This document shows positions 1 to 29,266 of a stretch of 64,000 nucleotides of DNA, piece by piece (the first letter of the stretch is position 1; each line of letters begins with the position of its first letter). Under the pieces are notes generated by a model, which saw only the letters and a list, made by a program, of their open reading frames with translations, did not search any database and was not told the DNA's origin. The stretch covers positions 758,316 to 822,315 of the forward strand of contig MU004240.1 in NCBI GenBank assembly GCA_010405405.1, in the 5' to 3' direction. Both the position numbers and the translations under genes were made by a program. The stretch comes from Microthyrium microscopicum (lineage: Eukaryota).

Positions 1-1261
1 CAAAAGTGAGAGCCAGTACTCCGGCCCAATACATTGACCTTGGGGACTTCTTGCTTTCCGACCACCATCCGAGCTTACTAACAGGCGCCGGATCATCCGC
101 ATCGAGCCACAGTTCGTAGAGCCGCTCTCCCCAATGTGGAAATTTCTGATAAAGACTGTCCACGTCAGTGGGCTGAAGAGCGTCTCCGGGGCTTTCATGT
201 TGTTGCTGGTAACGCTGCAAAGCCAGCAAGCGGGGATCGGCCTGAAGTGTCTTGATGCCTCTGTTTAGTATGGCGCGTGAGCGCCTCTCATGAGGTGGAA
301 ATAGCATCTCTAAACTACGGAGAGTTTCGCCGACAAGTTCCTGACTGAGACATCTGGATATTGCTCTAACATGACTGTTAATTGATATCAAAGACCAGAA
401 TGCTCATGCATACTTCTCATCAGCACACTGCTGTGTTCGAGCGAGACATTGCTCCAGAAATCCTGTGTGAGAGAAGACATGCAGATATTTTCCATTAGCC
501 GTTCTTTCCAACGTTAGATGATCCGGTAGATGAACCGTCCATTCAATTTCAATATCTGCATATCGTTCAAGATACGATGCTGTCAGCTTTTTGAGGTGGA
601 TCCGTTCCCAGCGCTCTAAGCTCTGCCTTGTACCCTGTGAGTTGAGAGGAAATGTCCGTGCAAGAAAGTTTTCCAGACTCTCAGCATATGACCAGGATGG
701 TCTGAAAATTTGTCCTGTTGTTACAACGTGGCCGGGAGCTGAAGACCGCGGTGTTACTAGGAATACCATTCTTACTACTAAATCCAACGCCCAATCATCC
801 ACATGTGCATCCTCATCTGGTGAAGATGATGTACTTGTATGCAACAGCTCAGTGAGCTCCTGGCGAGATTTTCCCGGCGATCGATTTAGGATGTCAACGA
901 TAGCGATTAGGCGATCGTGTACCCGGTGGTTGCCTCCTTCTGGCGCTACAAGCGACGGATGCAAATGGGCTATTGGAGCTATTTCATCCGCGTAGTACTG
1001 GAACCAGTGATCCAGTCGTCGCTGAGCCTCGTTATTCCAGCTACCGCTCCAAATCGCTGCTGCTAAGTCCTTTCTGGTCTCGCTGTCGATCTCGAAAAGA
1101 ACGTTTGTTTCTTGCACCTGAGGTGGCTCTGTTTCTTGCAACATCTCGAAAAAGCTTTTTGATTTACAGGTTAACGTTTCTGAAGGGGGGCTGAGCGCTT
1201 TATCTCTGCAACGTCCTACTTTCTGCCTTGCGCTTGTCAACAGGCTGAGGCTGAGCTCCAA
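1..1261 (-). CDS. Uncharacterised fungal protein, probably C-terminally membrane-anchored; 3' end runs off the window and the start codon is uncertain
   Basis: ORF 404-1261 ends in an intron (GTATGC donor near 413). The frame continues ...ELVGETLRSLEMLFP...FPHWGERLYEL...GWWSESKKSPRSMYWAGVLALTF to position 1. Motifs such as LTASYLERYADIEIEWTVHLPDHL recall a widespread ascomycete hypothetical family. Confidence 0.75.
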
Positions 1262-1572
1262 GTCTATTCTCTGCCAAGGAATGCATCTGTTTCAATCTTG
1301 ACGCATAAGCGCAACTGACAAGCTCAATTCGCGCGCTTTCTTTTTTGAGTCTGTCTACTTGCGCACTTTCGTATCTCTTCTTTACCATTCTGCAAATTCC
1401 TGATATGGAGCTCATGACTTATTAGTACGGGGGAATTTCCTTGTGGTTGTCGTCCCATCAATTCCACGTCTCGACGCGTACGGAGTAATGCCTAATATGT
1501 CGTAATTACCTACCAAGATCGGTACAACTACTCGGATATACAGCTCCTGGCGAAGGAATTCCAACAACGGCC

Positions 1573-4553
1573 ATGAGTGGTAAAAATCTGGAGGACACAC
1601 AGCCGGGAGCTCTCTTGCCTGTCCATCCGGCCGACGCAGGCCAGGCGATCTCAACGAAACCCGGGCTACGCTCACTACTACTGGCAGAAGGTTGCCGTTT
1701 GGGGAACAGCGTCAGACGTAACAGCATCCCCAGGATAAAGCCAAGCAATTCCGATGTTGGACCACCAACGCCGAACATCCTGATCAATGGCCAGGAAACT
1801 TCAGCTCGAATTGTTCAGCACACCCAGACAGTGAACAATACTGCCAATCTTCCGAAAGCAGAGAAGTGCGTGATTTTTCGCCCAATTACTGAACGATTTA
1901 CTCGGCCGTTATTTGCGTCTCACATAGGAGTTCGGGTCAAAAGCCAACTAACTTTCCGAGATGAAGAAGAAAAGACCTCATGCTACGCCAAGTTGCAGAA
2001 GTTCGCTGAACACGTTGACAAAAATTCCCTTGGGTTGTTTCGTGGTCACGGCAAGCCGACTCTAAGTTTTGACCTCGTTTCCGTTGAAGGCCTGCCTTCA
2101 TACGAAAAGCAACCTTGTATTATGATTCGTGGTCTCAAATCAACAAAAGATATTGCCTATTTCCATGGGTTCATGTCAATAAAAGCTGTGCGATCGGTTT
2201 ATATTCCACTAAAGCTATGCTATGATCCGTCTCGTCTCAGGCGACCCGCAAGCAATGAATACGAAGTGTCCTCAACTACGGCTGATAAAACTCTCTGTGG
2301 GCAGCTTATACAACACAGAACAGAACACGGGAATTCGACCTCAACCATTGGCGGCATCATCGAGGTTGACGGCAAATATCTAGCATTGACTACAGCTCAT
2401 GAGGCCTCACAAAACACATTGGCAAGTCTGCGCTCATCTCCAACAACCGACATGCTCCTAGATGACTGGAGCTCAGACGATGATGATAGTGATGATGATG
2501 AGGAGGATCTAGAGGGTCAACGGGCCCTGATATTAAACAACGAAGTCTGGAAGCAACAAAAACAGAATCGTTATGTCACACAGGAGTCAAATCCAGAGGT
2601 CATTGAGATCGAGTCACCTCTGTCGATATTCCTTGAGCAACCCATGGCAGAAAACGCCAATACTTCTGACTGGCGGCTACACCCTATCGCTGCTAAAGAT
2701 ATACGACCAAATCTACTGGAGATTGGGGATGTACAAAAGTATACGAGCTCAATAGAACCTTCGCCTAAGTCGGAGAATGTCTACATTCAGTGCGGGAAAA
2801 GTGGCCAACTGACGGGGGAGATTTCTCCAAACCTGTCCTTCTTGAAACCGAGCCCAGATAAGCCTTCCTTACTATGTTGGATGGTAAGTCTCCACAACAA
2901 GAATCATATCGACTTTATCATTCCTCCATGTTCGGTCTGAAAGCTGTTCTGTGAGGCGTCACAGAGTATCCTCTAGACAGATTCGTACCAATCAGGCTGG
3001 CTATCATCAATTACCATGGAACAATGCATGAGAAGTCACTAACACTTTGCAGGTTGTCCTTAGTATTGGTAACAGTGAGTTATGATCCTACGTGGCCCTT
3101 GACATCGCTAAACAGCCCAGCTCTAAATACCGGCGATTCAGGATCATGGGTGATCGGCGAGTCTGGCAACAATGTCTTCGGTCATATCGTCGCCTGCACA
3201 GGCAAGGTATGCTATCTGATACCGATGCATGACATTATGAAAAGCATCAACGAGCTCCTCAAACCCACTTTCGCGCCTCGGTTAGCACAGCCTTATTATA
3301 CACTAGCCATTACCGCATACCATCTTTTCCAGAGCGACGTCACGAAGCATCAAACCAGAGCTGTCACCTTAGCTACCCAGGCTGCATCATCAAATGTCCA
3401 GTCGAAAATCCTGGAGACCAATGATCACAACGGCCCTGCTCTGACTGTGACTGCAGAAAGCGACATAGCTAGGAAAATTTTAGCCGAACTCATATGCATC
3501 TGCGGACCCACGTTTGGTAGTGCCATCGATAAACCTGCTGGTTGGCTACAAACTCACAGCAAAGATATAGTTAAGGCTTCTCGCCTATTTGGTACATCGT
3601 ACTCTGGCGAGCAATATTTGGAGTGTCTTAGACTTTTTGCTGCCATCAACCGAAACCTACCTACGACTTGCTCAAAAAGTCTACTCTCAGTTCTCGCTGG
3701 GGATGACTGGTTCAATTTACGAGTGCCAGCAAGGCTCACAGCCACGCCAACGAAGTTTGATCTCACTAGCCATATATTGCCCTCAATGCCATCAGCTGTG
3801 TTTCCTGCCACGCTTGATCCTGTGCTCCAAACCGACGATACAAGGTCTCGCAAGATTGCCGAATCTTCAGCAGTAGGTGAGGGACAACCCGAGTTCCATT
3901 CAGCTTCCAGAAACACCAACGAAATGAAGAAACGGGTAGATGAATACTTGCGCCGGAGCGTTCCGGTATGGGCACAGAGGGTCTTCAGAAGACTGGTCCC
4001 TCGAAAGACAGAAAGGTCTAACCTCCAACAAGCTACCGAGCACGGGGAAGATAAGAGGCTGGTTCATAGGCAGGCTGAAATTGTTGAACCACAAAGGGCT
4101 CCTCAGAATCCTGCTCGCGAACTCTCCGAACTTGAGATTCAACAAACGGTGGCTTTGATTCCTGCCTCGAGCTCACCTGGAAGACTAAACAAAGACTCCC
4201 GATACCAGGTTGACAGTGACAGTTTATCACATGCTTCGATCCAACCCTTCAACCGCTTCAATGGCGCCCCCTCGCAAAAACTCGAACAACACACATCAAC
4301 TCAAACAGATGATACTTCCACCTTCACCTGGGGAGCTATGGATTTCGAGATTGATCCTTTCTCACAAAATCATTCGCTTCCGCCACTACTTAGTGTCGGC
4401 CTCGATATAAGGTATGTTGGTGGAATGGCTGGAGCAAATTCCGAAGACATTCCAGAAGACATTCCAGAAGCAAATTTCGAAGACGTTCCGGAATCAGCAC
4501 TTGATGACGATGAAGCCTTGATGTCTGTGATCTCTCAATCTAATCTCGGCTAA
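1573..4553 (+). CDS. Putative chymotrypsin-fold (Ssy5/Nal1-like) serine protease with long N- and C-terminal extensions
   Basis: Motifs STIGGIIEVDGKYLALTTAH (His), TSDWRL (Asp) and NTGDSGSWV...VFGHIVA (Ser). Introns 2884-3052 and 3075-3120 flank a 22-nt micro-exon that joins the two ORFs in frame. Confidence 0.75.
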
Positions 4554-5726
4554 GTCAAGCAACAACTCAACGCTCAAGTCCTTGAGTTAAAGCCATATTG
4601 TTGCCTCAGAATAGTCAAATGACTACTTGTGTCGTCCATCATTCTCAAGTCGAATTTATAAGCCGCAACATGTTTACATAGGCACTGGACAGCTTCGGCC
4701 TTGTCTTTTAAATGAAAAGTATAGATAGACCGGGACATCTCCTAGACACCACTCAGCATGCGGCATGCTTCATGTTTAACGAGGGCTACTTTCGCTTTCT
4801 ACGATACAAGGCTTTCTACCATGTCCTTTCTTGATAGCCTCTTCCCATGAGGTAATGCAAAGTCATGGGCTAACATATTGTGCTGTAGAAACTAATCTGA
4901 TGAGTTGATTATAATCTTATCCTTCTCCACATCATATACTATCTACATGGCCTGAAGGCGTTAAAAGTATCAAAGTCACTCGTAAGCAAACGAGGTGTTG
5001 AGTGGCAAGTTGCCTGCAAGGTTGCAAGTCTGGGCGTTTATGAAGCAGTTCACTCGTATCTTTGCTCAAACGTAGCTCTCAAGTTGATCATCGACTACCA
5101 ACAGGAGCTCGATATGGATAAGTAGATGAAGAGTGTCACCCGTTATGTAACGCTGAGCGGACTGGATCCTTGAAAATTGAGTTCATGACGAGAGATGGAA
5201 AGTGCAGACATTGGCTGAGTTATTGTGTTCAAAGTAAAGTGAAATGGTACTTTAGTGGTATTGCGACACTAGAGTACTAGTAAGTACCTCATGTCAAAAA
5301 AGAGATATCTGAAGATATACCGTAAAGCACCTGAAGTCATGAAAAGCGATTTCAAGACTCTTCATTTGTTTGTGAACGAAGACTCTATCTTTTGATGCAT
5401 CATTTTGGGGTTTGAAAGTGCCCAGTTCGCAGTATGTCCATATATATCAATGTTCAGATGATAAATACGTGTTGTCAAGTTTCAAGGTTGTCTTCAAATG
5501 TTACAAATGCATGTGCACAACATTGAAGCACGATGCATGTGTCCAATGTTCAAAGATGTCGATTCCTTGGCTCCTCACAATTAAGGCTTTCACTTTCAGC
5601 CACATGCAGTGCAGCTTGAGGTTGAACCTCAACTCAACTTTCAGAACGACTTCTACAGGTACTAATGTCAAATAATCTCGCCGCCCCTACCACACTTCCG
5701 GGACTTTGCTCTTACTAGAGGTATCC

Positions 5727-6524
5727 ATGGATGATGGACGACACCTCACTAATCGCTTGCTATCACGCATTCCCTTTGTTCGCACCTCCTTAGAAGAAAC
5801 GCGCCCATCGCTCTCTGAACTCGCCCATAAAAGTCCTCCAACATCGCCACCTCCAAGGCGGCGACCTCGCAAAGGCTCTTTGCGTAAGGTACTGCTAACA
5901 ACGGGCCACATTGCGTCTTCTCGAAGGGCTGGAGAGTTCAATCGCGATCCCCTCAAATCGCTGCCACACGACATTGTTGACTCTGCGCCCGCACCACCTG
6001 CGGATCAATCGCGCGATCATTACGGTAGTACAACAGATGAAGATAATGATGGTCTTACCTTACGAGCGCGAAGTGCTTCCGGAACTTACCAACCTCTACC
6101 CGGCGCTCCATCGGGCGCTCCCATAGTCTCACGTCGAAAGAGCATGCGAAGCTCTGGTCCCATCCCCGTACCTATCGCGATGCCTACAAGCATTCCCAAG
6201 TCCATCGATGATCTCGCACCCGCTATACAATACCACGATTATTCTGAGACGGAATGGTGGGGCTGGATAATTCTTGCGGTTACCTGGATTGTCTTTGTGG
6301 TTGGAATGGGCTCATGCCTTGAAGTGTGGAGCTGGGCCTGGGATGTTGGCGAGACTCCTTATGCTCCTCCAGAGCTGGAAGATGATCCTACCTTGCCGAT
6401 TGTCGGATACTACCCAGCTCTGATTGTCATGACTGGTGTTATGGCCTGGGTTTGGGTCATGGTCGCGTGGGTGGGAATGAAATATTTCCGACATGCAAAA
6501 GTATGGGATGGAGAAGAATATTGA
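5727..6524 (+). CDS. PIG-Y/Eri1-like GPI-GlcNAc transferase subunit domain protein
   Basis: Disordered N-terminus, then two TM helices (WWGWIILAVTWIVFVVGMGS and YYPALIVMTGVMAWVWVMVAWVGMKYFRHA), typical of the PIG-Y family. Confidence 0.65.
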   Translation: MDDGRHLTNRLLSRIPFVRTSLEETRPSLSELAHKSPPTSPPPRRRPRKGSLRKVLLTTGHIASSRRAGEFNRDPLKSLPHDIVDSAPAPPADQSRDHYGSTTDEDNDGLTLRARSASGTYQPLPGAPSGAPIVSRRKSMRSSGPIPVPIAMPTSIPKSIDDLAPAIQYHDYSETEWWGWIILAVTWIVFVVGMGSCLEVWSWAWDVGETPYAPPELEDDPTLPIVGYYPALIVMTGVMAWVWVMVAWVGMKYFRHAKVWDGEEY

Positions 6525-6580: not shown

Positions 6581-7962
6581 CTAGGACGTCAGATACTCTA
6601 CCAACGGCTCCCTCCAGATGACGGCGTCTTTATAAACGTCCATGGCAGGAACACCACCAGCTCGCAATCCGTTTAAAGCTCCAGCAAGCTTCGGACCGGA
6701 TCCTTCCTTCTTGATTTCAGACAAAGGCTCCAGTATAGTCTTGAACCCGAAGATGATTGCACCAGACTTCTCTAGACGATGAAGGGTTTGCCTTTCCATT
6801 CTCAAGGAACACTTCAGAGGATCAACTTTCTTCGTCTCTTCAGCCCATTTGGCGATCTCCTCATCAGTTGGCGTATACGTAGGAGGAGCCATCTCTATAT
6901 TGGCTTTCGGTCTGCCATTAGACTTACTCGCGGTATCATCCGCTACTCTGATATCGATATGAAGTCCTCCAAGTTTGAACAACACGCTATCTGTAGAGAT
7001 GGACCAGTTGGCTCTTTGTACCACCTTTCCATATGGTAAGCTTGCGAAATAACGATCCATAGACTTCTCTAATTTGATCGAGTAGCCTGGCACTGGACCA
7101 TGTATACCTAAATCATCAGCGGATCGCCAAGACTTCTGGGCATTGCATGACCTACCTGCTAATGGCAAGCCTAGCTTTAGTCTTGGAGTAAATCCAGAAG
7201 GGAACGCCAAAACGAATGCATGCATGTGGAACACCTCTTTGGGTTCCATGGTCGGCACTGCGCGAAATGGAGCTGCGTTTGGGTCTGAAATCGGCAACAG
7301 AATCGCAAACTCACAATCTACATGTCGTCCGATCGTCTTCAAGCACTCCTCCGGGGTTGGAACTGAAAGTGGGACCAAATCTTGTGTGACTAGATTCCGC
7401 ACATATCGGCTTCGGAGACCTTTCTCTGTCAATTTATCCTCGGCTTTAAACATGGATGGGAATCGCTTTGGAAGATAGTTCTCAAAGATCCATGAATATA
7501 GCTCGAAAACTGCATCCCTTGCAACTGGATTGAAACCGATGGTTTCATCGGGCCTCTCAGCAATCAACTGCTGCCGTAGCTGGACCTTCTCAGAATAGGT
7601 TTTGTCCATGAGCACGATCTCGGACAGACTACATGATTGCAGACCTAAAATTGTCAATGACTACCGATAGACAAGTGGAGCTCACGAACCCATCGTGAGA
7701 TGATATACATCTCTGAATGGTCTTAACTTGACATGGTCTACGTTTGTCCAATCGAAGTCCTTCAATGGCTCTATGTCTTCATAGGGATTGGTCTTTACAT
7801 CTTCGACGCTTCCAATCTTTCTTGTCTGTGTCAGCCGCTATCGGTAGTTAGATACAGTGTTTGATGATTGATGTACTTGACTGTTACCTTACGTATCGCC
7901 ACCGAAATACCAATCAGCACCAGGAAGAAGCCAACCACAATGCGAATATCGAACAATCCCAT
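6581..7962 (-). CDS. DUF3445 / HRQ-family protein (heme-dependent oxidative N-demethylase alpha-like) with N-terminal membrane anchor
   Basis: ATG at 7962 (MGLFDIRIVVGFFLVLIG...), three introns. Motifs FPSGFTP..KLG, IHGPVPGY, RANWSI and RMERQTLHRL..SGAIIFGFKT. Confidence 0.8.
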
Positions 7963-8463: not shown

Positions 8464-9675
8464 TCAATCATATCCATCTCTACCTGCTACAACACCATAA
8501 GCACCACCACCCTTACCAAACATAACTCTCAAGTCTCCAGCTAGCTTCTCCGGTCGTTCCCAAGCCGCAAAATGGCCTCCACTTTCTGCCCAGCTCTCAA
8601 ACACCACATCGCCCAAAGACGGCAGTAAAAAGCTCGGCATGCCCACGATATCTTTGGGAAACTGTGTCACGCCTAATGGCACCGGAATCCAGTCCCAGAA
8701 ACCACCACTCTTGCTCGATCCCTTCTGTGCCTCATGATATATTCGCACCGAGGCTCCAGGCCCAGCCTTGGAGAACCAGTAAACCGATATCCAAGTCAGC
8801 AACTCCTCATCACTCCACTCATACCCATCTGTCCATTCCTCCAGCTTCTCGCCTACCCAGCCCAGCAGTGCCACCGGACTGTCTGCAAACGCATATGCCA
8901 CCGTCTGCGGACTGCTCTCCTGTACGCGATAGTAAGCGTTGCCCACAGTCACATAGTTCAGTGCGCGTCTCAATCCATCACGATCGCGTGCGCCCGGCCA
9001 GCGCCAGAACCAGCGAACAAGTGCAGAAGGAGCACGCATTACGCTGCCACTATCAACCCCAGCAAGATTGACGTGGACGGCACGCACGGCAGTTGGGTAG
9101 TGTCTTGCCATATTGCGACCGATCATGGATCCCCAGTCCCCGCCTTGGATGGTGTACTGCGGGTAATCGAGTGCGAGCATGAGGCTATGCAAAACTTCGC
9201 CGTAGGAACCCAGATGGAAACCAGCTTTGGGCACCCCATCAGAGAAAGCGTAGTTCGGAAGACTAGGAACAATGATATCGAATGCTGGCTCGTCATTGTT
9301 GCTCTCTCCTAATACTTTGAGAAGCTTTTTGGCTTCGAGAAAACTGCCTGGCCAGCCGTGGATGAATAGGAGAGGGATTGCGTTTGGTTGTTTGGACTTT
9401 TGATGGACGAAGTGAATGTTAAGGGTGCCAAAGTCCTCGCTTTTGACAGGCATGGTGTACATTGGCAATTCATTCAGCTCGCGCTCATGTTTTCTCCAGT
9501 TCGGTAGGTACGAGGTCCTCCAAAACTCGACTAGGCCTTTCATCCGAGCGATAGGCACGCCTTCAGCCTTTTCGTAGCCTTCGACTCCATCTGGAAGTCT
9601 TGTCAATTCCAATTTTTTCATCAACAGGTCCAAGTCTGAGTCGGGGATGCTAATCTTAAATTCGCTGGGCTCCAT
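8464..9675 (-). CDS. Microsomal-type epoxide hydrolase (EHN domain plus alpha/beta hydrolase)
   Basis: Motifs IHFVHQKS, LFIHGWPGSF, QGGDWGS (nucleophile Asp), DSPVALLGW and GGHFAAWERP. Confidence 0.93.
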   Translation of the reverse strand: MEPSEFKISIPDSDLDLLMKKLELTRLPDGVEGYEKAEGVPIARMKGLVEFWRTSYLPNWRKHERELNELPMYTMPVKSEDFGTLNIHFVHQKSKQPNAIPLLFIHGWPGSFLEAKKLLKVLGESNNDEPAFDIIVPSLPNYAFSDGVPKAGFHLGSYGEVLHSLMLALDYPQYTIQGGDWGSMIGRNMARHYPTAVRAVHVNLAGVDSGSVMRAPSALVRWFWRWPGARDRDGLRRALNYVTVGNAYYRVQESSPQTVAYAFADSPVALLGWVGEKLEEWTDGYEWSDEELLTWISVYWFSKAGPGASVRIYHEAQKGSSKSGGFWDWIPVPLGVTQFPKDIVGMPSFLLPSLGDVVFESWAESGGHFAAWERPEKLAGDLRVMFGKGGGAYGVVAGRDGYD

Positions 9676-10059
9676 TATGGCTTTCGAGAACTTCTAATAT
9701 CCTATGAACAGAGGAATGTTTTAGACTTGTAGACTAAGAGTTGGAAAGCTAAATGCTGCTCCATAATTGTTTACATGATAGGCAATTCGTCACCACAGCA
9801 CCTGCCCTCAAACCGAGGCTCACATGCTACAAATCTGAGAGTCACTTCAAGGCAACTGTGAGTTTCACACATTCATTTGTCATGGATCCAAGAAATTATC
9901 ACTTTCCAGCATGTTTTTAGTTCTCCAGTGAGCTGGGCTTTTTCATGCAACACTGCCCCCCTAGAAAGCCTGTAGAAAAGGAGGCTATGAATCGTAAAAA
10001 GTTGTTCAAGAATGTCCATTTAAATCATTGGCTTCGATTATCTAGACTTTTAACTTACA

Positions 10060-11412
10060 TCAAGTCGATCCTGCTGGCTTGATACCCATCTTGACAAACG
10101 GACTGTTGTCAAAGTTGACATAGTCATGAAAAGCAGCAGCTTGCGCCTTTGATATTGCAACTTCTTCTCCTCTGAGCACAACTCCCTTGTCATATTCTTC
10201 AAGAGCATCACTTTGCGAAACCTCACCTTTCGATATAGCAGTAATCTTCTGCACAAACTCAAAAGCGTCTTTGATGGCGAGATTCCCGCCTTGGCCACGA
10301 TGAAATGTCATACTGAATGTAGTTAGAGATAGCATGCTACCACAAAACCTTGCCTAGAACTTACCTGTGAGCTGCATCTCCAGCAAGGGTAACTTTTCCC
10401 TCCTTGTTGTCCCATGGAGTGGGTTGCCAAATTCGAAGTTGATCTGGCTTGATAACCACATCGTCAGCCAACCACTCCACGATACTCTTATAAGGATCCG
10501 CCCAGCCATCCATATGTGCTCGTAGTCGTTCTAGTCGGTTCGGTGTGTTCTCTTCGTCTTCCTTGGTTTCGATATTCCACGTCACCAAGAAGTAGAAGAT
10601 CCAAGTCTCAGGCTTGTTGATGTCTGGCTTGTCAAGCAAGAACAACCCAAGATACATGTTCTTGGGATGTGTAGCAACATCAACGTTTGGATTCATCACG
10701 CTGTCCGCCCATTTTGCCTTGTCTGCGGGCAGAGAAAATGCAAAGTTCATGAATGCATACGGCAGCACTTCTTGAGCAGCCGCATCTCCAAGCAGCCATT
10801 TTCTCACTTGACTGTTTCCGCCATCGGCGCCAATGATGACATTGCCAGTCTCTTTGCTGCCATCGTCGAAATATGCAATCACCATGTCTCCCTCAACACT
10901 TATGTCGAGAAGCTTTTTTCCATATTGGACGTCTAGTCCTTGAGCCAAATGCTTCTTTGTCTTTTGAATATTGACCCGTCTGATGACTGGAAATGTCGCT
11001 TGAGCTTTTGGAAGGCCTGTTGATCCGTCTCTGATCAAGATGCCTGCCTTACCAGCGTCTTTTGAGTCTAACGTTGGATCCGGTTGGCACACCTTTATCT
11101 CGCTAAAGAGGTCCGCGGGAAGCAGTTGTTCCAGGAGAGGAAGAGCCCAACTGAGGGTGATGCCCCAACTTCGATCCCTAGGTGTCGACTCTCGATCATA
11201 AAGACTGTATGAAATATTTCGCTTTCATTCAATCAGCTATTGAGGCTTTACGACCCAGGACGTTCTTTCACCAACCTTATTTAAACCATGAGCAATCACT
11301 AATCCAGCCAATCCTATGTTTAGAATCTGATTAGCTCTAGTTCTTCCTGAAGATAACAATGAACATCCTTACCTGCGCCAACCACAATAACATGCAAGGG
11401 TTTCTCACTCAT
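10060..11412 (-). CDS. FAD-dependent monooxygenase (aromatic hydroxylase-like)
   Basis: Spliced start MSEKPLHVIVVGAG-LAG (GxGxxG); motifs IGADGGNSQVR and VTLAGDAAH..TFHRGQGGNLAIKDA; several introns. Confidence 0.9.
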
Positions 11413-14945: not shown

Positions 14946-16583
14946 TCATCTTGTTGACTCTGCTGAGGAGAGTAGAGTGCGTTTGCTTTTCCCAGAGAAT
15001 GTATCCTCAAGTCCTTCAGTATCCGAATCGTCGCCCGTGTTTTGAGAGCTGCGTCCAACGAGAGCCTCGAAGACAGAATCCACGCTGTCATCAATGCCAG
15101 CGACTGTATCGTCACCTTCTAGCTCGTTGGACTTTCCCCATGGCCATATATACATACTTCGCTGACCATCGTGACACAGCAGGGATGGTTTGGGATGTTG
15201 GCTTTTGATCCATTGTATGTCAAATTTGCCGTTGGAATACCGAAAGGGCATCTGTGCGACTACAGGCTCGCCTTTTGTTGAATCCCATAGATGTATATAC
15301 GGTACATTCTCCTTCTCAACCACGATCAAGAGCAACCCAGGGATAGAAGGATGCCAGGAAAGTCGTTTGATAGGTGAATGCTGAACAAGGACACATTTCA
15401 CCTGGAAGGAAGCCAGATCCCATATCCAGGCCGTGGTTGGGGCCAAATCATCTTTGGTCACAACCAAAGTGCTGGAAGCATCGACAGTAACCAGAGAAAT
15501 GCCGTGTTTTGGATCTTGGTCCGTTGAAGCAGTCAAGGAAGTTGGTGGGGAGAATGGCGAGGTGACGATTGTGTATGATCGCGTCAAGGGCCCCGTAAGC
15601 TGTTCTTGCCATATTGGCTTATCTTCTCCGAGATTTATGATAGCTGCGTGATCCAAGTGCATCATGGGAGTAAACTGTAGCATGGTGTTAGCTTGAACCA
15701 AAGATTCAACAACAAGGACATACAGTGCGAGACTTTAGGATAGTTACACGACGACAATGCCCTCCAAGTAACAAATGCTGACTATCAGGACTCCAGACCA
15801 GAGTTAGAATCCCAAGTTCGAAATCCTCACCACCTTGATTGCCAAGGTAAGGCCGAAAGAGGTTCCCATCTGCTGTGTAGATTTGTACGTTCGTGCCCAA
15901 AGCAGATGCATCCCAGATGGCAATCCATCTCCCGTCTGGACTCCATTTCAATCCTTGAGCATCAGTAGTAGAAGTCGTAGCAGTTCGAACCACGTTATAA
16001 GACTCTGGTGCGTGTATAGTGAGAAGGTCTACCGCTGCTGGCCTTGAAAGAAACGCAAGATGGCCGCTATTAGGTCTGAAAGCGTAGAAATTGACCAAAG
16101 ATTTGGAATCCCTGATCTCAACATGTCTGCCCGACACAAGAGACCACACAGTAAGCTTTGAGCCAAAGTCGTTGAGGATCAGGATTTCATCTTTTGTTCG
16201 ACCAAACTCGGCACTGGCAATTTTGCCCATCCCACCGGTCCCATTCGTGATTTTGGCAGACCATTGGGTGTCGTCAAGATCCCAGGCCCGAACATTATCA
16301 CGGCCTTGAATCAGGATCCGTCGACTATCAGTTGGAGAGTTCGATTCTGGTGACCATTTAATGGCATTACCGGCAACACCGACCTGAATCGTGCGGACAG
16401 GTTTCGAGGAACCTGTTAGACAAATGTCTATCCGTTCTCCACTCTTAGGAATGGCAATGTATTTACAGTCGTCTGATAGACAGGCCGGAGCAGAGCCTGT
16501 TACACAAATATTAGCATGTACAACTCTGCGGCAGGATAAGGAGGTGTTGATAACCCACTCTCGATGGCGGATGAGAACTCCAT
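14946..16583 (-). CDS. WD40 repeat protein, WRAP73/WDR8-like
   Basis: Start MEFSSAIE; motifs DFGSKLTVWSL, DAQGLKWSPDGRWIAIWD and VLVQHSPIKRLSWHP; two introns. Confidence 0.8.
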
Positions 16584-16920
16584 GTAGCGTTATTTTTTGT
16601 CTATACCTCTAAATTCGTGCTATCGAAGCTCATGGCAAAATATGAATTGGATTTCACCGTGGTTGACGACTTTCAGCCTTGCAGCAGTTCGTGTTTACAT
16701 TTAGACAACAATACAATCCAGTGGGGCGAACCCCTAAGCTAGGGGCTCTCGAAAGACGCTAGTGAGCTAGCGCCAAACTTCAATCTTGAACTTTTTAATA
16801 CTCCAAAATTTATCGGCTTGTCATCCACTACCAATACTCAAATTTCCTTCAAAACACCTAGCTACAGCCAACATGCGAGTCTGATAATTGAATCACATCG
16901 CGCTCTGTGTAAGACTTCAA

Positions 16921-18635
16921 ATGACCATCGCCTTGAGGCGTTGTGTTAGATCCTGGCCACACTTTTATCCCTATCCCCAACTCCAGAGTACCAATTTGAT
17001 ATCGACTCATCCACGAGGCAATATAGTTACAAAATCTACCAAACTCTACTCTAGCAATTCCAAAAGCTACAATCTTCCGAAAATGGCGTCCGATTCGCCT
17101 CAAACCTCTCCTTCTCGCCCTAAACTTCATGGTCGCGCCTTCTACGAGTCCATCGGCAGCCCAAACTTCATCCTCGCACCAATGGTCGACCAATCTGAAT
17201 TTGTAAATACTCTCACCCTCCTCCCTACTCCTCACTCTAACAACTTCAGGCCTGGCGACTCCTCACCCGCTTCTTTCTACCCGCAGAACGCCAGCCCTCC
17301 CTTCTCGCCTACACGCCCATGTTCCACGCCCGCCTTTTCGCTTCCGGTCCAAAATATCGCGATGCCGCCTTCCAACCGTTCCAACGATCGTGGACCAGTC
17401 TAAATGGGCCGGCAGAAACAGCAGAGCCATTATACCTAGATGGCAACCCAGCACACGACCGCCCACTCTTTGTTCAGTTCTGCGCCAATGACCCCACCGA
17501 ACTCCTCTCCGCCGCCCAGTACGTCGCGCCCTACTGCGACGCCATAGACTTAAACCTAGGCTGTCCCCAAGGCATAGCGCGCAAAGGACACTACGGCGCC
17601 TTCCTCCAAGAAGACTGGGATCTAATATACCGCCTAATCAACACCCTGCACACCAACCTCTCCATCCCCGTAACAGCCAAGATGCGCATCCTCGACACAC
17701 GCGAGCAAACACTCGCCTACGCCTGCATGATCCTCTCCGCCGGCGCAAGCATAATAACAGTCCACGGACGGCGACGGGAGCAAAAAGGGCACAACACAGG
17801 CGTAGCAGATTGGGAGATGATTAAATATCTGCGCGACAATCTGCCAGCAGACACAGTTCTATTTGCCAATGGCAATATTCTACAACACAGCGACATACAA
17901 GCGTGCCTAGCCGCGACTGGTGCGGACGGCGTGATGAGCGCGGAAGGAAATCTACATGATCCATCAATATTTGCAGAACCGCCAACGCCGGGCTCAAATA
18001 ACAGGGAGTACTGGTGGGGAGCGGATGGACGGGGTGGGTATCGGGTGGATGCGGTGTTGAGGAGATATTTGGATATCATATACACGCATGTCCTCGGCAC
18101 CACGCCACCCGTCCGTCAACCGCTCTTCATTATTGGTGATAAAGCGTTCGATAATGGAAAAGCAAAAGAAACCTCGACTTCTGGTGAAGAGGAGAAGAAG
18201 CAGAGCAAGGCAAGCACGCAATCTAATAACCCAAACCTCACAGCGATGAAAGCACATGTTTTTGCACTGATGAGATCGCTTATACCCACACATACACATA
18301 TCCGGGATACCATAGCGCGCGCCCGAGGTGGTGATATGGATGCTTTCGAACAAGTATTAGCTTTGACTGAGGCCGCCATCCGAGACGAATTCATCAATCA
18401 ATCGAAAATCGAAAATAGCTTCACATCACTGGAGATCAATGATAGCGTAGAAAACTCAAGCATACGAGCTCGATGTGTTCGTCCTTGGTGGGTTGTACAG
18501 CCGTATATCAGACCGCTTCCCGAGGAGGCTATTGCAAAGGGATCAATGCAAATGAGTAAAAAGGCCAAGAAAGAGCTGGCGGAGCGTGAAATGGCCGCAA
18601 ATCCTCAGGCTGAACCGATAGCAGCTGCAGCTTGA
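16921..18635 (+). CDS. DUS1: tRNA-dihydrouridine(16/17) synthase; alternative start at 17083
   Basis: Motifs FILAPMVDQSEF-AWR, DRPLFVQFCAND, DLNLGCPQGIARKGHYGAFL and VHGRRREQKG; intron 17203-17249. Confidence 0.95.
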
Positions 18636-21594: not shown

Positions 21595-23969
21595 ATGTCT
21601 GCTCCAGAAGACACATACCCTCCTGGCCCATATACTCCCAAACCAAGCCCATTGCACCCGGCACCTTCAAAGGATCCTCTCTCCAAAGATCAGTGGCGAA
21701 CTTTCTATGCACTTGCCGACACCATTGTAGCATGTATCCAACCATCAAGTCTCGCCAAACCACAGGTCGATTATGGAGTCGCAGAGAACGACTATGCCAT
21801 GGCATTCAACAAGGCAGAGAAATTTGCTCTTGCTGTAGGAGAGTCCAGACTCGCAAAAGAATACATGATCGAACGACCATCTGATAATCCACTCTTCCGA
21901 GCCAATGCCTACCGCCTACTATCCTCCTATGTGCCAAAAGATTTGTTTGATCAACTGGTTCTTGGACTCACACTACTCAAGTACGTTGCCAATTGACCAG
22001 TAACTGCCCTTGTACTGACTTGATAGTTATCGTATAACCGGGGTATTTTTAACACGGCGACTTGGACTTTTCGCCGATCAACCAGTCCATATCCGTGAGG
22101 AAATCGTTCAATCGTGGTCGCAGAGTCCACTACCGATTATTCGACTACTGTTCAAATCACTAGGTCTTCTTGTCAAGCAAACATGGGCAAAGTCCAGTGC
22201 CCCTCTACATAAGATGATCTCATTTCCTCGTGTGCCTGTACACGGCACGCCAGCGAAAGGATTCGAGTTCTCATTTATCGAACTCCCTCCTGGATCTCAG
22301 CCTGAAATCATAGAAACGGATGTCGTTGTGGTGGGCAGTGGATGCGGTGGTGGTGTGGTGGCAAAGAACTTGGCTGAAGCAGGACACAAGGTTCTTGTTG
22401 TTGACAAGGCATATCACTTCTCGGCGGAACACTTTCCTATGGTAGAGTCTGAGGGTTGGGTTCATTTGTTCCACAATGGCGGATTCTTATTCTGTAAGTT
22501 GCTTCTTGACATGCAACACTACCCTCTCTGATTCTTCTCTAGCTAAGGATAGCTCAACGTGTGTCGTTGCTGGTCAAGCTTGGGGTGGCGGTGGTGCAGT
22601 CAATTGGTCTGCATCTTTGCAGACTCAAGGCTACGTTCGCAAGGAGTGGTCAGATGCCGGACTTCCTTTCTTCACATCATACGAATTCCAACATTGTCTG
22701 GATTCTGTATGCGATAGAATGGGCGTCTCTGGCGATCACATCACTCAAAACAAAAACAACGACGTCCTCCTCGAAGGTGCCCGCCGACTCGGCTGGACTG
22801 CGAAAGTAGTCCCCCAAAATAGTGGAGGAAAACGACATTACTGCGGTTATTGTACGATGGGTTGCGCCGCCTGCGAAAAGCAAGGCCCATCAGTCTCCTT
22901 CCTTCCCGACGCCGCGCAAGCTGGTGCCAAGTTCATTGAAGGCTTCGACGTCGACCGCGTTCTCTTTGAAACTGATAGCAAAACCGGTAAGAAGACCGCC
23001 GTCGGCGTTCAAGGCTCGTGGCTCGGTCGCGACGAACATGGCGGCGTAGCAGGCGAGCGACGCACAAAGCGCAAAGTCATCATCAAAGCCAAGCGCGTCA
23101 TCATCTCCGCCGGCACAATGCATACGCCCACCATTCTTATGCGGTCACGCCTGACAAACAAGCACATTGGCAGCAATCTCAAGCTGCACCCTGTTTGTGT
23201 CGTCGGCAGCGTATACGACGAGGAAGTGCGGCCATGGGAAGGCGGTATTCTCACCGCCGTCGTCTCCAACTACGAGAACCTGGACGGAAAAGGCCATGGT
23301 GTAAAACTTGAAGCTACATCTATGCTACCATCCACATGGTTGGCCTTCCCTGTCTGGCGCGGCTCAGTGGACTGGAAGATGTTAGCACTCAACATGAAGC
23401 ATATGACCGGGCACATTAGTCTCGCCCGCGATGAAGGATCCGGCTCAGTTTATTTAGACGCGCACGACGGCCGCCCACGCTTCAAGTACAACCCCAGTCG
23501 TAAAGACCGCAGACATATCCTCGAAGGAGTAATCGCCCTCGCCAAATTAAACTACATCGCCGGCGCCCGCGAAATCTTCACCGCTATACCTGGCGTGCCA
23601 CACTTTGTGCGCGCGCCCAAGCCAACGACTGGCGAGCAAGAAGGTTGTGACGCATCGGGTATCAATTGCCCAACATTCAACGCGTGGTTGGACAAGATAC
23701 GCAAAGTCGGCTTGCCGGATCCGGATACGACGTTCTTTAGTGCTCATCAGATGGGGTCGTGTCGTATGGGTGCGTCGCCGAAGAAGGGCGCACTTGATAT
23801 GTATGGCCGGACATGGGAGGCCGATAATTTGTACGTGGCGGATGCGAGTACATTCCCAAGTGCGAGTGGTGTGAATCCTATGATCACGAACATGGCAATT
23901 TCGGAATGGGTGGCAAGAAATATTGTGAAGGATATGAAGATGGGTGGTAAAGTCAAAGGGAAGTTGTAG
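21595..23969 (+). CDS. Long-chain fatty alcohol oxidase/dehydrogenase (GMC oxidoreductase)
   Basis: Motifs DVVVVGSGCGGGV, WGGGGAVNWSASL, HYCGYCTMGC, SAHQMGSCRMG and FPSASGVNPMIT. Ends in -GKL, a PTS1-like tripeptide. Two introns. Confidence 0.92.
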
Positions 23970-24118: not shown

Positions 24119-24871
24119 TCAGGATTTGGTAGTTGGCTGCGATATCTTCAACTTTGAAACATCAACAACATGTCCCTCTATCGCCCCAACGTCCTCCCCG
24201 TTTTCTAGCGACGGAAACGCAGGCTTCTCATCCAACCCTTCCCGCTCCACAACATCCGACTTCAACAAGCCCTTCTCCACCAACTTATCCTCCTCCTTCA
24301 CCACCGCCGTCCTAATCGGCAACACTATCCCCTCAGCTCTCACATCCGCCTGCACGCTCTCCATCTCCGTAATCCCCTTCTTCCCACCAACGTCCCCCAC
24401 CGGCCACCGAAACCGAATCCAGCCCTTCCCCCTCAACCACCCAGGCGTACTCCCCAACTGCGCCTTGACATAAACAGCGCGCATTTTACACCCTGCACTA
24501 CACCACGCCTCCGCGGCTTCCCTCTCAACTACCTTCGCACCTTTCCCGCTACCGACCACGCTTTTTAGGCCGCCGTAGGGGTTGCGCTTGGGGGCTTTAG
24601 AGCAGAGGATGTAGCCGCATTTATCGACGCGGCGGCGCTCGTCTATTAGCTCGTCATAGTCGGATGCTAGGAAAAGTTGGAGATGTAGCGTTGCTAGGGA
24701 TATGTCGGTGGGAGATGGGGCGGAGACGGAGATGGTGGTGAGAGGGAGGTCGAGGAGGGATTCTAGGGCGGAGAGGTTGGTGGACTCGACGTCTTTGCGG
24801 GCTTGGTATTTTTGGGCTTCGGCGAGGGCGGCGGCTAGGTGGGTGGGGTCGACGTCTTTGGGGATGGGCAT
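24119..24871 (-). CDS. RTR1: Rtr1/RPAP2 family RNA polymerase II CTD phosphatase-like protein
   Basis: Zinc motif DYDELIDERR..KCGYILC...WCSAGCKMRA..VKAQL; C-terminal AIEGH. Confidence 0.8.
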   Translation of the reverse strand: MPIPKDVDPTHLAAALAEAQKYQARKDVESTNLSALESLLDLPLTTISVSAPSPTDISLATLHLQLFLASDYDELIDERRRVDKCGYILCSKAPKRNPYGGLKSVVGSGKGAKVVEREAAEAWCSAGCKMRAVYVKAQLGSTPGWLRGKGWIRFRWPVGDVGGKKGITEMESVQADVRAEGIVLPIRTAVVKEEDKLVEKGLLKSDVVEREGLDEKPAFPSLENGEDVGAIEGHVVDVSKLKISQPTTKS

Positions 24872-25765
24872 TTCGACTGCCGAGAGTAGTAGGTATGGGC
24901 AAGATGGGTTTGCGGCTGCGCTGTGGCAATTTTTTGATAGATTTTTGAGTAGATACCCTTGAATATGGATTGTGGTTGTCTTGTATGAATTGGCGCTTAG
25001 TGCTGGGTTTGATCGAAAAGTTTAGTATAAGATTTGGTTGTTGTGGAGGTTTGAGTTGCTGTGTGAGTTGGTGATGTTGATGGAGTTGAGAAATGTAGAA
25101 GCTTGGACAAATTTGGGGTAAGATCCCTGCATTCGGCGCTTGGACTGTATCGTTGTTGCCAAGGCTAAATGGTTGGGCTTTTTGCTTTGCATCGTTCTTG
25201 TTGTATGATATGAGTCCATGATTCAGTCTGCCCACCGCTTCATTGCCGACATCAACTTCTCTCCTCTGCCCATAAAACTACCTGAAATCTGGTTATCACC
25301 CATTGCTTGTAGGCGGCTACAGCAAGCTTACTATTGAGCCAACTCCTTACTTCATTCGGGCTGCTGGTCTCATTTGCCCTCTGAGCCCTTCGTCACCACT
25401 CGTCGGTAAGATCTCCATGTTTGCATCCCCAGTCTTGTGTCAGATCATTATGCCTGAATTTCACCTCTTCCATGAACAAAAGTGCTGACTTGAAACCTTT
25501 ATCTAGTGGCTCATATAGTTCTACCGCTTGTATCCTCTTAATTCAGATCGCCGTCGCAAACCGCCAATTCTGGAGCTAGGCAACAGGTCAGCACAGCCTC
25601 CTTCAATCGTCGACTTCTTATTACACCTTGATCTTGTCCCGCATGGAATTGTCATAGTTGTGGTTCTTCACTTGTGTTTATAGACGACATTGATATTAGC
25701 ATTGGCGCATACCGACATTGGACCTCACTAGATACCTAGCGCCACCCCTACTCATCACCGGCATC

Positions 25766-28700
25766 ATGGCTGCCCCGCCCTTTAAAGTCAAGGCGACTTA
25801 TGACTACGCTTCCCCTCACGATGATGATTTGAGTTTTCCGGAAGGCCAAATTATAACTGTTACCGAGGAGGAGGATGCCGATTGGTATGTTGGTTCGTAT
25901 ACCGATGCTTCCGGGGCCCAACAGTCAGGTCTGTTCCCGAAAAACTTTGTAGAGCGATATGAGCCTGCCCCGCCTCCACGACCAACGCGAGCGTCGCGGC
26001 CCAAACCCGCGGAGCAACCTGCTCAACCGGAGCCAGATGTTGAAGATGTAGCTCCTCCAAGTCGACAGGTAGTCGAATCTCCGCCACCCCAACCGACTTC
26101 TCCTGTACTTTCAAAGGCTCCTATTCCTGCTTCTGCCCCGGCGCCGGCGCAAGTAGAGGCATCGTCTCCTCCTCCAGCTAGATCACAGCCTACGCCAGTA
26201 AAAGCGTCTAAACCGGCTCCTCCTGTGGTAGAAAAGCCATCGTCTTTCAAAGATCGCATTGCAGCCTTCAATAAATCTGCCGCTGCACCTCCAGCACCTT
26301 TCAAGCCCTCGGGTTTGGGATCGTCTGGCTTTATCAAGAAACCTTTTGTTCCTCCACCGCCATCTCGCGATGCATATGTTCCACCTGCGCAAACTGTTGC
26401 CCCACAAAAGATCTACCGTCGTGAGGAAGATCCGGAAATAGCCGAGAGACGTGCCCAGGATCAAGAAAATGCCGAGAGAGCAGGTCTTGCGCCTTCGGGT
26501 GAGCAGGAAGACGATGAAGAGGCTCCAAAACCAGTGAGCCTTAAGGAGAGAATTGCTTTACTTCAGAAGCAGCAAATGGAACAAGCTGGTCGCCGAAATG
26601 ACACGGCTGCTAAAGAAAAACCGAAGAAACCTGCGAAGAAACGCGAACCTGTTGACGAGGATGATAACTCTAGTCAGCAACCTGAGGCACCTCCACGAGC
26701 GTCGGGCGAGCATTCTATTGCTGGGGAGGATGCATCACAACGCGCCCCTCGTCCACCTAAGCCGCCAGCGGAGACCATCGTTAGTGATGGCAACGAAGCT
26801 GATCATTCTGCAGCAGGCGAAACCACTGAACAAGAAGGCGGATCCACTGGTGTAGAAGATGAGGAACATACTGCACACCATGAGGAACCTGCGGCTGCAG
26901 AAGAGGAGGAAGAAGGCTCTACCGAAGAAGAAGATATGGACGATGAAGCCAGACGTCAATTAGCTATTCGCGAGAGAATGGCAAAACTTAGCGGAGGCAT
27001 GGGAATGCCAGGCATGTTCGGTCCACCTGGTGGTTTGCCTATGATGGGAATGGCATCTCAACCAAAAAAGAAGAAACCTCAGGAGCAACGGGTTGAAGAG
27101 TCACAAGAGGAGTATACTCAAGCTGCTCCTCCTAGAATTCCTGTGCTGCCGATGCCAGAACTTCAGCGAAATCTCTCATCAGAATCAACTGAGGATCAGC
27201 GGACTCCAAGGGAAGAGTCTCAATTCAGCGCGCCTGCCCCTCCGCCGAGAAGCAATACAGGAGGTGAGTAATTTCAGGCCATAGAAATTCTCTAAGCTAA
27301 CAAGTTCTCAGCTCAACAGCGTGTACCGGCTTCTATTGAGTCACCAAGCTCAGGATCGGAATCAGATGATGAGCTTCCTGGAACTTCTCAAGCTCAAGCT
27401 ACACCAATAGCGGCTTCAAGTCCGCAAGTTCCTCAGATGCCTATTCTACCTAAACATGAATCAACTTCTCGCCGGCCGCCAGCTCCGCCAAATCACGCGT
27501 ACGATAGCTCTCCAGGCTTGCCTCCTCAAGCACTACACGAAAAGCGCATGAGTAGAGGGTCTATCGTGACATCGGAACAAAGTAACCAAGCCTACGAAAG
27601 ACCAGAGCCTCCTCTACCACCTACAATGTCGCCGACCCAACAACATTCTGAATTTCTTCATCGCCAAACACGAGCTGGAGGTGAAGGTGAGAGCGAATAT
27701 GAAGGAGACTACGATACTGACATTGCATCTGGAGCTAAACATAAGGAAGCTTTGAAAGCACACGCACGAGAGCCAAGCCTCGATGATAGCACAATCGCCG
27801 ATGAACCTCGATCTCCGCCTCCAGTCCCATCATCACCACCGACAAGTAGAGCACCAGCTCATCGACCTGTTCCACCGCCACCGCCTGCTGTTCAAACATC
27901 GATTCCGAGGACATCGATAGATAGCCCTCGAGCTGCTCCTCCTCCAGTGCCACCCCGCGATTTGCCGTCCCCGGGAGAAGACGACGATTATGATCCATAC
28001 CGATACGTTCCAGGTGGTCCGACCCTAGGAGTACCTAGCCCCGGTTATACATCACCTATCTCTAGTTCTGGTCCTCCGCCCCTACCCAAAGTTGCAGCTC
28101 CACCTCCTCTTCCTTTTGCAGCGGCTCCACCGCCTATTCCATCCGCAGGACCTCCACCCCCTGTTCCATCTGGAGCTCCTCCACCTCCACTACCAGCTTC
28201 AGGGCCTCCTCCTCCAGTTCCGCAACGCAACGTTGAACCCGAGGAAAGTAGCGAAGAGGAATATGATTACGAAGAAGAGCAACCACGTAGCAGAATACCG
28301 GAGGGTCATCCCTCTCTTCCACCACCTCCACCACCTCCAACTGCTCCGCAAACGAGACCTGCGCCACCACCACCTACTACCCAGCCAGAACCATCTGTCC
28401 CAAGATCAGCTCGATCATCAGCCGAGACCAACCGTGATCAGCCTGTCCGAAGATCTACGGACCAGCATCGAATGGCTACAAATCACGAGTACATTGCATC
28501 AGAGCTGAATCTCAATGAGGAGAGTGGTTGGTGGAGTCAAGCAAACACGCTTCCTCCAGTCCTCCAGGGTCGAAAGGATATTCAGTTTGAAGTCGAAGAA
28601 TCGACAACTACCAAGCGGGGAGGAAAGGCAATCACCAACAAAGACGTATATGTTCTGTTCCAGGACTACTCCCAAACCGTCATAACAGCTCGATATGACC

Positions 28701-29266
28701 CCAAGAACCCATCTGATGTCGTCCTCGAGCAAAGACACGAAGCACCACCACAAAAACTTCGACAAGACCAACTAGAAGACGCACACACTCAGTTTGGTAA
28801 AGTCATAGCTGAAGCGATCACCGCCAAACAAAACTCTGTTGTTGGTGACGGTACACCACAAGGCCTCATCCTCGACCTTCTGCAACCCCTCCCTGGCGCC
28901 CTCTACCCCGTCGGCACGCGCGCATATGGTGCTCTCGTCTACGCCAATCTCGCCAACGCCACTGTCCAGCAGTATGATGAAATCCGCGCTGGTGATATCG
29001 TTAGCTTTCGCAATGCCAAGTTCCAAGGCAAGCACGGCGGCGTGATGCATCAAAAGTACCAATTAGAAGCTGGCGCGCCAGATCATGTGGGTGTAGTCGT
29101 TGAGTGGGACGGTACCAAGAAGAAGATTCGTGCTGCTGAGCAGGGACGCGAGAGCAAGAAGTGTAAGGTGGAAAGCTTTAGGTTGGGTGATCTACGGAGT
29201 GGTGAGGTACGGGTTTGGCGGGTCATGTCGAGAGCTTGGGTGGGATGGGATGGAAATAGTGCGTAG
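25766..29266 (+). CDS. BBC1: SH3-domain, proline-rich myosin-tail-interacting protein (Bbc1/Mti1-like)
   Basis: N-terminal SH3 (ATYDYASPHDDDLSF...GLFPKNFV), repeated FKDRIAAF/LKERIALL motifs, RERMAKLSGG and conserved C-terminal domain (DLRSGEVRVWRVMSR.WVGW). Intron about 27263-27311. Confidence 0.85.

Follow-up and report, generated by a model that had tools for sequence, protein, structure and literature searches.

A conserved divergent gene pair of filamentous ascomycetes encoding a chymotrypsin-fold protease and a predicted tail-anchored protein of unmatched fold

The DNA considered here is a stretch of 64,000 nucleotides from Microthyrium microscopicum (assembly GCA_010405405.1, contig MU004240.1, forward-strand positions 758,316 to 822,315; hereafter the window), at the left edge of which stop-to-stop open reading frames (ORFs) and the raw sequence reveal two diverging genes. 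The gene on the minus strand encodes a protein with a C-terminal hydrophobic segment (hereafter the partner) and the gene on the plus strand encodes a protease, and the window holds a single copy of each. Their start codons, at 1144 (partner) and 1573 (protease), lie 428 bp apart, which agrees with the divergent close arrangement described in an earlier note on this DNA and is slightly above the gap of 0.3-0.4 kb that was given there.

The partner gene begins with the ATG at 1144, has one intron and two exons, and exits the window at position 1. Its product P0001 (401 aa) is 100% identical to the window translation; residues 1-365 lie within the window and residues 366-401 are taken from P0001 only. 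For the protease gene, beginning with the ATG at 1573, three exons were predicted from splice signals, and the database protein P0003 (921 aa) has an identical structure. In run X1 the DNA contig runs colinear with the window. The contig of run X5 spans the whole 4.6 kb and skips positions 366-413 (CT..AC, corresponding to GT..AG on the minus strand), 2883-3051 and 3075-3120. Since the segments missing from the X5 contig coincide with the three introns of a pair of genes on opposite strands, we take the contig as spliced RNA, and on this basis both genes are taken as expressed and both gene models as confirmed; the assignment of X5 as RNA is a software guess, and none of the listed runs containing this sequence is recorded as RNA. 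The features of the locus are as follows.

1..365, minus strand: partner exon 2 (residues 244-365), with its splice junction in the X5 contig, containing the conserved juxtamembrane block FPHWGERLYELW...SPRSMYW
2..37, minus strand: first 12 residues (354-365) of the partner's single C-terminal hydrophobic segment; the remainder (to 386) and the last ~15 residues fall outside the window
366..413, minus strand: partner intron, 48 nt, GT..AG, with the joint 365/414 in the X5 contig, matching the P0001 model
414..1144, minus strand: partner exon 1 (residues 1-243 and two bases of codon 244), the N-terminal globular domain
1145..1572, no strand: shared intergenic region between both start codons, 428 bp, a putative bidirectional promoter
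1573..2883, plus strand: protease exon 1 (residues 1-437), with a disordered N-terminus (1-90), an alpha/beta domain and the first barrel with His276 and Asp366
1885..2232, plus strand: protease alpha/beta domain, residues ~105-220
2398..2400, plus strand: CAT codon of the putative catalytic His276, motif LTTAHE
2668..2670, plus strand: GAC codon of the putative catalytic Asp366, motif SDWRL
2884..3052, plus strand: protease intron 1, 169 nt, GT..AG, with its joint in the X5 contig
3053..3074, plus strand: 22-nt microexon (residues 438-444 and the first base of codon 445), from the P0003 gene model and the X5 contig
3075..3120, plus strand: protease intron 2, 46 nt, GT..AG, with its joint in the X5 contig
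3121..4553, plus strand: protease exon 3, with the end of the second barrel including GDSGSW, a helical domain (~480-640), a disordered tail (650-921) and the stop codon at 4551-4553
3138..3140, plus strand: TCA codon of the putative catalytic Ser451, motif GDSGSW

A single spliced X5 contig of 8352 nt spans both genes, the 428-bp interval and further DNA on either side. This corresponds either to transcripts that overlap in the shared promoter region or to a merger by the assembler, and the contig cannot distinguish the two. The microexon at 3053-3074 sits immediately before the codon of the catalytic serine. In the eight nearest database relatives of the protease (P0004-P0011, 391-453 aa) the alignment ends at P0003 residue 425-444, at or just before the microexon splice site, and GDSG is absent; judged from their sequences, these look like gene models cut off where the microexon was overlooked, so that the catalytic serine would be missing from the annotation.

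The relationship of the two genes was followed in metagenome contigs, which were scanned with the partner alignment A3 and yielded 25 loci with a relative of the partner. A tblastn search of these loci with six protease-family proteins matched 11 of the 25, and every protease match lies upstream of the partner on the opposite strand. The ten loci that carry the N-domain of the partner and at least 1.5 kb of upstream DNA (L001, L005-L009, L012-L014 and L018) all have an opposite-strand protease homologue just upstream. In L010, which is identical to L018 where the two overlap, the start of the protease falls at the contig end and its first 39 residues are present. Twelve other loci, with less than ~1.1 kb of upstream DNA, are too short to judge. 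The last two, L019 and L022, have more than 6 kb of upstream DNA with no protease match even at E<=10, and here only the last ~100-150 partner residues match. When loci at least 97% identical are collapsed, 7 distinct loci are left and the linkage becomes 7/7. A lack of linkage in other genomes had been named beforehand as an outcome that would refute the proposed module, and the pair was found linked in 10/10 testable and 7/7 distinct loci.

The gaps between the start codons are 437-550 bp in six of the distinct loci and 1128 bp in L001, and neither the remainder of the loci (~192 kb in all) nor the 64-kb window contains a further protease match. Outside the gene pair the window shares no flank with the loci, and among the loci flanks are common to close relatives only; even L006 and L009, which have 88% nucleotide identity, share a flank on opposite sides of the pair. 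Because the same divergent arrangement recurs in 7 distinct loci with differing flanks, the pairing is beyond chance, and the fact that the pair stays together as its flanks change means that the two genes very likely act as a unit, so that we consider a functional coupling of protease and partner highly probable. The partner relatives at L019:9884-10312 (to which L021 is 95.5% identical) and L022:6679-7103 are remnants comprising the C-terminal module only; in-frame stops interrupt the one in L019 and a frameshift the one in L022, and no protease gene lies anywhere within the 6-10 kb upstream of them.

One alternative explanation would be that the two genes are functionally unrelated and are adjacent only through a shared compact bidirectional promoter. 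As general background, divergent pairs with short shared promoters can persist for regulation alone (cf. PMC2871058; here and below, what is said from cited papers refers to the parts of their texts available to us). We nevertheless regard this explanation as very improbable, as protein identity between lineages is down to 27-45% and all other synteny is gone, yet the pair persists, the partner is degenerate where the protease is missing, and both families appear, from the sequences collected, to be restricted to Ascomycota. In 8 intergenic regions no shared promoter word was found that might explain the constraint, with no 9-mer present in at least 4 of them and the best 7-mers in 5 of 8.

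The two genes also change together. Pairwise identities of partner and protease co-vary with a Pearson r of 0.95 and a Spearman coefficient of 0.77 (28 non-independent pairs). Ratios of nonsynonymous to synonymous substitution rates (dN/dS) are 0.06 for the partner and 0.36 for the protease between L006 and L009, and 0.29 (partner exon 1), 0.10 (partner exon 2) and 0.32 (protease) between L005 and L008, corresponding to purifying selection on both genes that is stronger on the partner. In terms of amino-acid identity, the L006 and L009 proteases agree at 68% and the partners at 94%. Within the protease of this comparison (L006:5727-8000 vs. L009:1015-3180, minus strand), dN/dS is 0.08 in the first ~110 residues and 0.25-0.63 in the rest, with 0.63 in the helical domain (domain limits approximate). 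The conserved protease N-terminus, predicted to be disordered in P0003, may be a regulatory or docking segment.

The protease belongs to a family that sequence annotation does not reach. Pfam gives 0 matches on P0003, and 32 of 36 relatives are without any match, the other 4 matching transporter families only, outside the protease region. When all 55 members of the family alignment A6 are scanned at E up to 1, one Trypsin_2 match at E 0.038 is obtained, and Peptidase_S64 (PF08192), NAL1_N and Nal1_C match neither P0003 nor any of the 55. A search of PDB sequences with the A6 profile found nothing. The family is nevertheless large, given the 147 cluster representatives (clusters defined at 50% identity) that an exhaustive HMMER search with exon 1 matched at E<=0.001 and of which 66 reach E<=1e-10. 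In the Atlas, 22 of the 30 neighbours of the protease are unnamed Ascomycota clusters; Peptidase_S64 is found on 15% of the members of one neighbouring cluster and Nal1_C on 16-57% of the members of some, which we treat as leads only. Four protease-family representatives (P0041, P0072, P0090 and P0148) are database models fused to transporter domains (AA_permease_2, Sugar_tr, MFS_1), and these may be real fusions or merged neighbouring genes.

An AlphaFold (AF2) model of the protease built from the 55-sequence alignment is confident at residues 100-640, with a predicted local distance difference test score (pLDDT) above 90 across most of residues 240-500. It contains an alpha/beta domain (~105-220), two beta-barrels (~245-480) and a helical domain (~480-640), with disorder at 1-90 and 650-921. 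Foldseek returns 50 PDB matches at E<=0.001, and the rows shown are all chymotrypsin-fold proteases, headed by rice NARROW LEAF 1 (NAL1; 7y77_A, E 2e-7) and followed by streptogrisins, alpha-lytic protease and HtrA-type enzymes. With VIA-align, the model superposes on streptogrisin A (2sga) over 171 residues in the range 240-500 (Z 17.6, root mean square deviation (rmsd) 2.8) and on NAL1 8pmi_A over 267 residues (Z 16.9, rmsd 4.4), with model residues 129-506 placed on chain residues 87-451. The modelled structure thus agrees with the two six-stranded beta-barrels of a chymotrypsin-fold (clan PA) serine protease.

The conserved blocks T-T/S-x-H, DW.L and GDSGSW contain His276, Asp366 and Ser451, respectively, and the triad is kept in the 55-member alignment (His in 50/55, Asp in 46/55 and Ser in 47/55, where 6 of the Ser misses are gaps from truncated models). 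Among the paired loci GDSGSW is found in 7/7 distinct loci, DWRL in 6/7 and the His block in 6/7 by motif pattern, the alignment giving a His in the seventh (L012, GSSH). P0003 has no N-terminal hydrophobic signal. These results bear out the earlier description of a protease without a signal peptide and with intact His/Asp/Ser motifs, and we consider it probable that the enzyme is catalytically active. In L012:6339-8195 (minus strand), L013 and L014, SWRL replaces DWRL at the catalytic Asp, with the His and GDSGSW retained, and the protease gene of the L012 lineage is interrupted shortly ahead of GDSG by an intron containing in-frame stops, roughly where the introns of the window gene sit.

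By Foldseek, NAL1 (PDB 7y77, 8pmi and 8hau) is the closest of the known proteins. The alignment covers the pre-protease domain as well as both barrels: NAL1 has an ATP-binding domain at 89-172 and a protease domain at 184-458 (PMC12012508), and the alpha/beta domain of the fungal model superposes on the former from ~residue 129; the bare core of the bacterial proteases reaches a Z score at least as high. Like the fungal protease, NAL1 is intracellular with a H/D/S triad, and it acts by limited proteolysis of regulators, binds ATP and forms a hexameric cage (PMC12012508). The two differ in that identity is only 11-13%, and in the fungal protein a long acidic insert separates His from Asp, with the extra helical domain at ~480-640 and a 280-residue disordered tail as further differences. 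The streptogrisins A and B and alpha-lytic protease give the highest Z on the two-barrel core, but these bacterial enzymes are secreted, comprise ~190 residues with a pro-region, have an identity of 8-15% and lack the N-terminal alpha/beta domain and the helical domain. To our knowledge, NAL1 has no dedicated neighbouring partner gene.

Only one hydrophobic segment is present in the partner; it comprises 33 residues (354-386 of the 401 in P0001), and the ~15 residues after it carry a conserved YC.W......C motif. The stretch MYWAGVLALTF that the earlier note saw entering a hydrophobic helix at the window edge is indeed the start of this segment. P0151, which carries the source label hypothetical protein, Glutinoglossum americanum, has one hydrophobic segment as well (351-385 of 411). 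There is no signal peptide and no second membrane segment in the partner, matching a tail-anchored layout, with a mostly helical domain of ~350 residues predicted to face the cytosol. The best-conserved part of the protein is the C-terminal third (ETL..L.LLFP ... FPHWGERL ... NP.P ... SPR..YW, then the helix), and the invariant blocks of the N-domain are ALDL.VR, F.P.W..E.L, WT..L.DHL and K.L.VF.H. Two similar blocks, ESLENFLARTFP and ETLRSLEMLFPP, at residues ~155-166 and 257-268 (window ~646-681 and 328-363, minus strand), may represent an internal duplication in the sequence; their likeness made MAFFT place exon-1 fragments on the C-terminal region in alignment A4, and alignment A5 was used for folding.

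Relatives of the partner are mostly unnamed. Word-indexed searches found few of them (P0002, P0150 and P0151, plus fragments), Pfam at E up to 10 gives 0 families for P0001 and P0002, and neither a fold search of BFVD nor a sequence profile search of the PDB returned any match. In the Atlas, 25 of the 30 nearest clusters are unnamed Ascomycota, and the partner belongs to a large, unnamed family that appears restricted to this phylum. Three Atlas clusters share the overall predicted structure of the partner with template modelling (TM) scores of 0.64-0.72, all others being at or below TM 0.32. A search for longer proteins containing the partner sequence found none, which is weak evidence against fused forms. 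The AlphaFold model, made from 15 sequences, is of moderate quality (pLDDT 65.5, predicted TM score (pTM) 0.41). Helices make up most of it, the long one at 352-390 being predicted with confidence (pLDDT ~90), and a small sheet occupies 198-224. Foldseek against the PDB gave no match for it at E<=0.001, and a wide VIA search reached a best Z of 5.3, with most rows on the long C-terminal helix alone. We describe the partner fold as unmatched rather than new, since the model is of the whole partner.

With these two proteins at hand, we tentatively favor a reading in which the pair constitutes a conserved two-gene limited-proteolysis module of filamentous ascomycetes that operates at a membrane. 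In such a module the protease would work at the membrane holding the partner, the partner would be its dedicated substrate, and a cut in the conserved loop or the juxtamembrane region would free the ~350-residue cytosolic domain. That the partner is a substrate at all seems possible by analogy, at a level somewhat short of an even chance. A membrane location is compatible with the hydrophobic segments that follow the protease domain in 29 of 53 GDSG-bearing family representatives, and the paired proteases of L005, L006/L007, L008, L009 and L018 match the multi-transmembrane (multi-TM) C-terminus of P0015. The partner gene is kept even where the protease carries its own membrane domain.

Precedents for such a scheme would be the processing of Stp1 by Ssy5, the signalling of SltB to SltA and the cutting of FZP and TPR2 by NAL1. 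Ssy5 (MEROPS S64), which in the SPS sensor of yeast processes Stp1 and Stp2, resembles the protease described here in being a chymotrypsin-like endoprotease that signals inside fungal cells, has a large N-terminal part and operates at a membrane-associated sensor (PMC4557415; PMC5567314). It differs in that PF08192 matches neither P0003 nor any of the 55 aligned relatives and in having unrelated substrates and partners, and the available parts of PMC4557415 and PMC5567314 describe no gene-pair arrangement for it. SltB/SltA of Aspergillus nidulans is likewise a signalling system, found only in Pezizomycotina and built around a trypsin-like-domain protein and the dedicated target that it modulates (PMC4557415); SltB, however, has 1272 aa and an N-terminal pseudokinase, with no kinase domain present in the protease-family members scanned, and its target SltA is a zinc-finger transcription factor as opposed to a tail-anchored protein.

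Several observations weigh against the limited-proteolysis reading. All loci were reached through the partner, meaning that the linkage is seen from the partner side, and several of the metagenome loci are near-duplicates, with L006 and L009 being 88% identical. The moderate quality of the partner model makes the lack of a fold match a weak point. The Ser at the catalytic Asp position in the L012 lineage suggests that catalysis may be dispensable in places. The resemblance to NAL1 is structural only, no sequence-family match to NAL1, S64 or trypsin being significant. The substrate relationship is one that we infer from linkage and analogy. Lastly, the protease of the window has no membrane segment of its own, an observation that also suits the principal rival, in which the partner would serve as receptor, scaffold or inhibitor at the membrane, placing the protease or holding it in check, with the real substrates elsewhere (e.g., latent transcription regulators). 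This alternative would also account for a partner constrained along its whole length, far beyond the needs of a simple cleavage substrate, and for the known fold relatives acting on soluble regulators, as do Ssy5 in the SPS sensor and NAL1 with FZP and TPR2. We hold it to be rather doubtful all the same, since the multi-TM proteases of L005, L006, L008, L009 and L018 retain the partner gene, so that anchoring alone would be insufficient.

A second alternative follows from the earlier proposal of an effector-protease module. Here the partner would be a latent membrane-damaging or allorecognition effector switched on by cleavage, making the pair a trypsin-fold counterpart of HET-Q2/HET-Q1. The background to this proposal is accurate: ~80% of the gasdermin genes of fungi lie in clusters with genes for S8 or CHAT proteases, clustered proteases activate fungal gasdermins, and in the two-gene HET-Q2/HET-Q1 cluster, which also joins a non-secreted serine protease to a membrane-acting protein, clustering predicts cleavage (PMC8851545). 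The conserved pairing of protease and membrane-protein genes, the faster evolution of the protease (68% identity against 94% for the partner in L006/L009), the degenerate partner copies in L019 and L022 and the variation of flanks among lineages are all features that such a system might show. On the other hand, the partner is modelled as mostly helical with a permanent C-terminal anchor and has no significant match in Pfam or Foldseek, and dN/dS values of 0.06-0.29 for the partner and ~0.3-0.4 for the protease give no gene-wide sign of diversifying selection. The HET-Q2-type enzymes are subtilisins (S8) or CHAT proteases rather than chymotrypsin-fold ones, and the word "trypsin" occurs 0 times in the text of PMC8851545. 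Gasdermin-controlling proteases typically carry NLR or repeat parts (PMC8851545; PMC12881547), and Pfam finds no NLR, WD40, TPR or ANK parts in P0003 and its relatives. Housekeeping genes neighbour the pair in the window, and contigs of three runs (three organism labels) have no differing letters in the stretches covered by them, a tiny sample in which the strains are perhaps identical.

The earlier note had stopped short of calling the partner a gasdermin. The Foldseek and VIA rows for the moderate-quality partner model contain no gasdermin entry, and by its sequence, and probably by its predicted fold, the partner does not look like one. What survives of the proposed effector-protease module is a conserved divergent unit with a chymotrypsin-fold protease; nothing points to cell death or allorecognition. 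We regard the effector alternative as unlikely, and as a special case of the substrate model that is rated below signalling. For the limited-proteolysis module, a signalling or regulatory output is accordingly considered more likely than killing. A bolder form of this model, which we find doubtful, would be an Ascomycota-wide two-component system in which a NAL1-like, possibly cage-forming and nucleotide-regulated intracellular protease is dedicated to one tail-anchored protein of new fold that is released or activated by cleavage at an organelle membrane.

Dedicated limited-proteolysis modules as such are already known, and the novelty lies in a protease family without annotation, a predicted tail-anchored partner whose fold is unmatched, and the conserved divergent arrangement of the two. 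Our literature search, with subscription journals outside its scope, returned no description of this pair or of a fungal NAL1-like protease, nor any paper naming NAL1 together with Ssy5. Intracellular chymotrypsin-fold signalling proteases are few, the examples found in the available texts being Ssy5, SltB and NAL1, each of which was discovered genetically. Because Pfam and PDB sequence profiles miss the family, surveys based on Pfam or MEROPS, such as PMC5567314, have probably omitted it. The conserved neighbour offers what such proteases usually miss, a specific candidate substrate or co-factor, which makes the function directly testable. If the link to NAL1 is true, the family would provide an evolutionary context for the NAL1 type of protease outside plants. 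If the bolder two-component reading is true, the system would be a new pathway of signalling from membrane to cytosol, or of regulated cell death, among filamentous fungi, and the plant yield protease NAL1 would gain its first relatives in fungi and its first candidate partner with a genetic link.

Beyond the pair, a scan of 14 neighbouring ORFs of the window found no NLR or HET domain, and the neighbours at 5676-31760 are ordinary or housekeeping genes, including the following.

5676-6524: PIG-Y
6581-7660: HODM_asu-like
8464-9693: epoxide hydrolase
10361-11224: FAD monooxygenase
15706-16608: WD40
17241-18635: dihydrouridine synthase
22446-23969: GMC oxidoreductase
24119-25021: Rtr1
25700-29266: SH3 plus AIM3/BBC1

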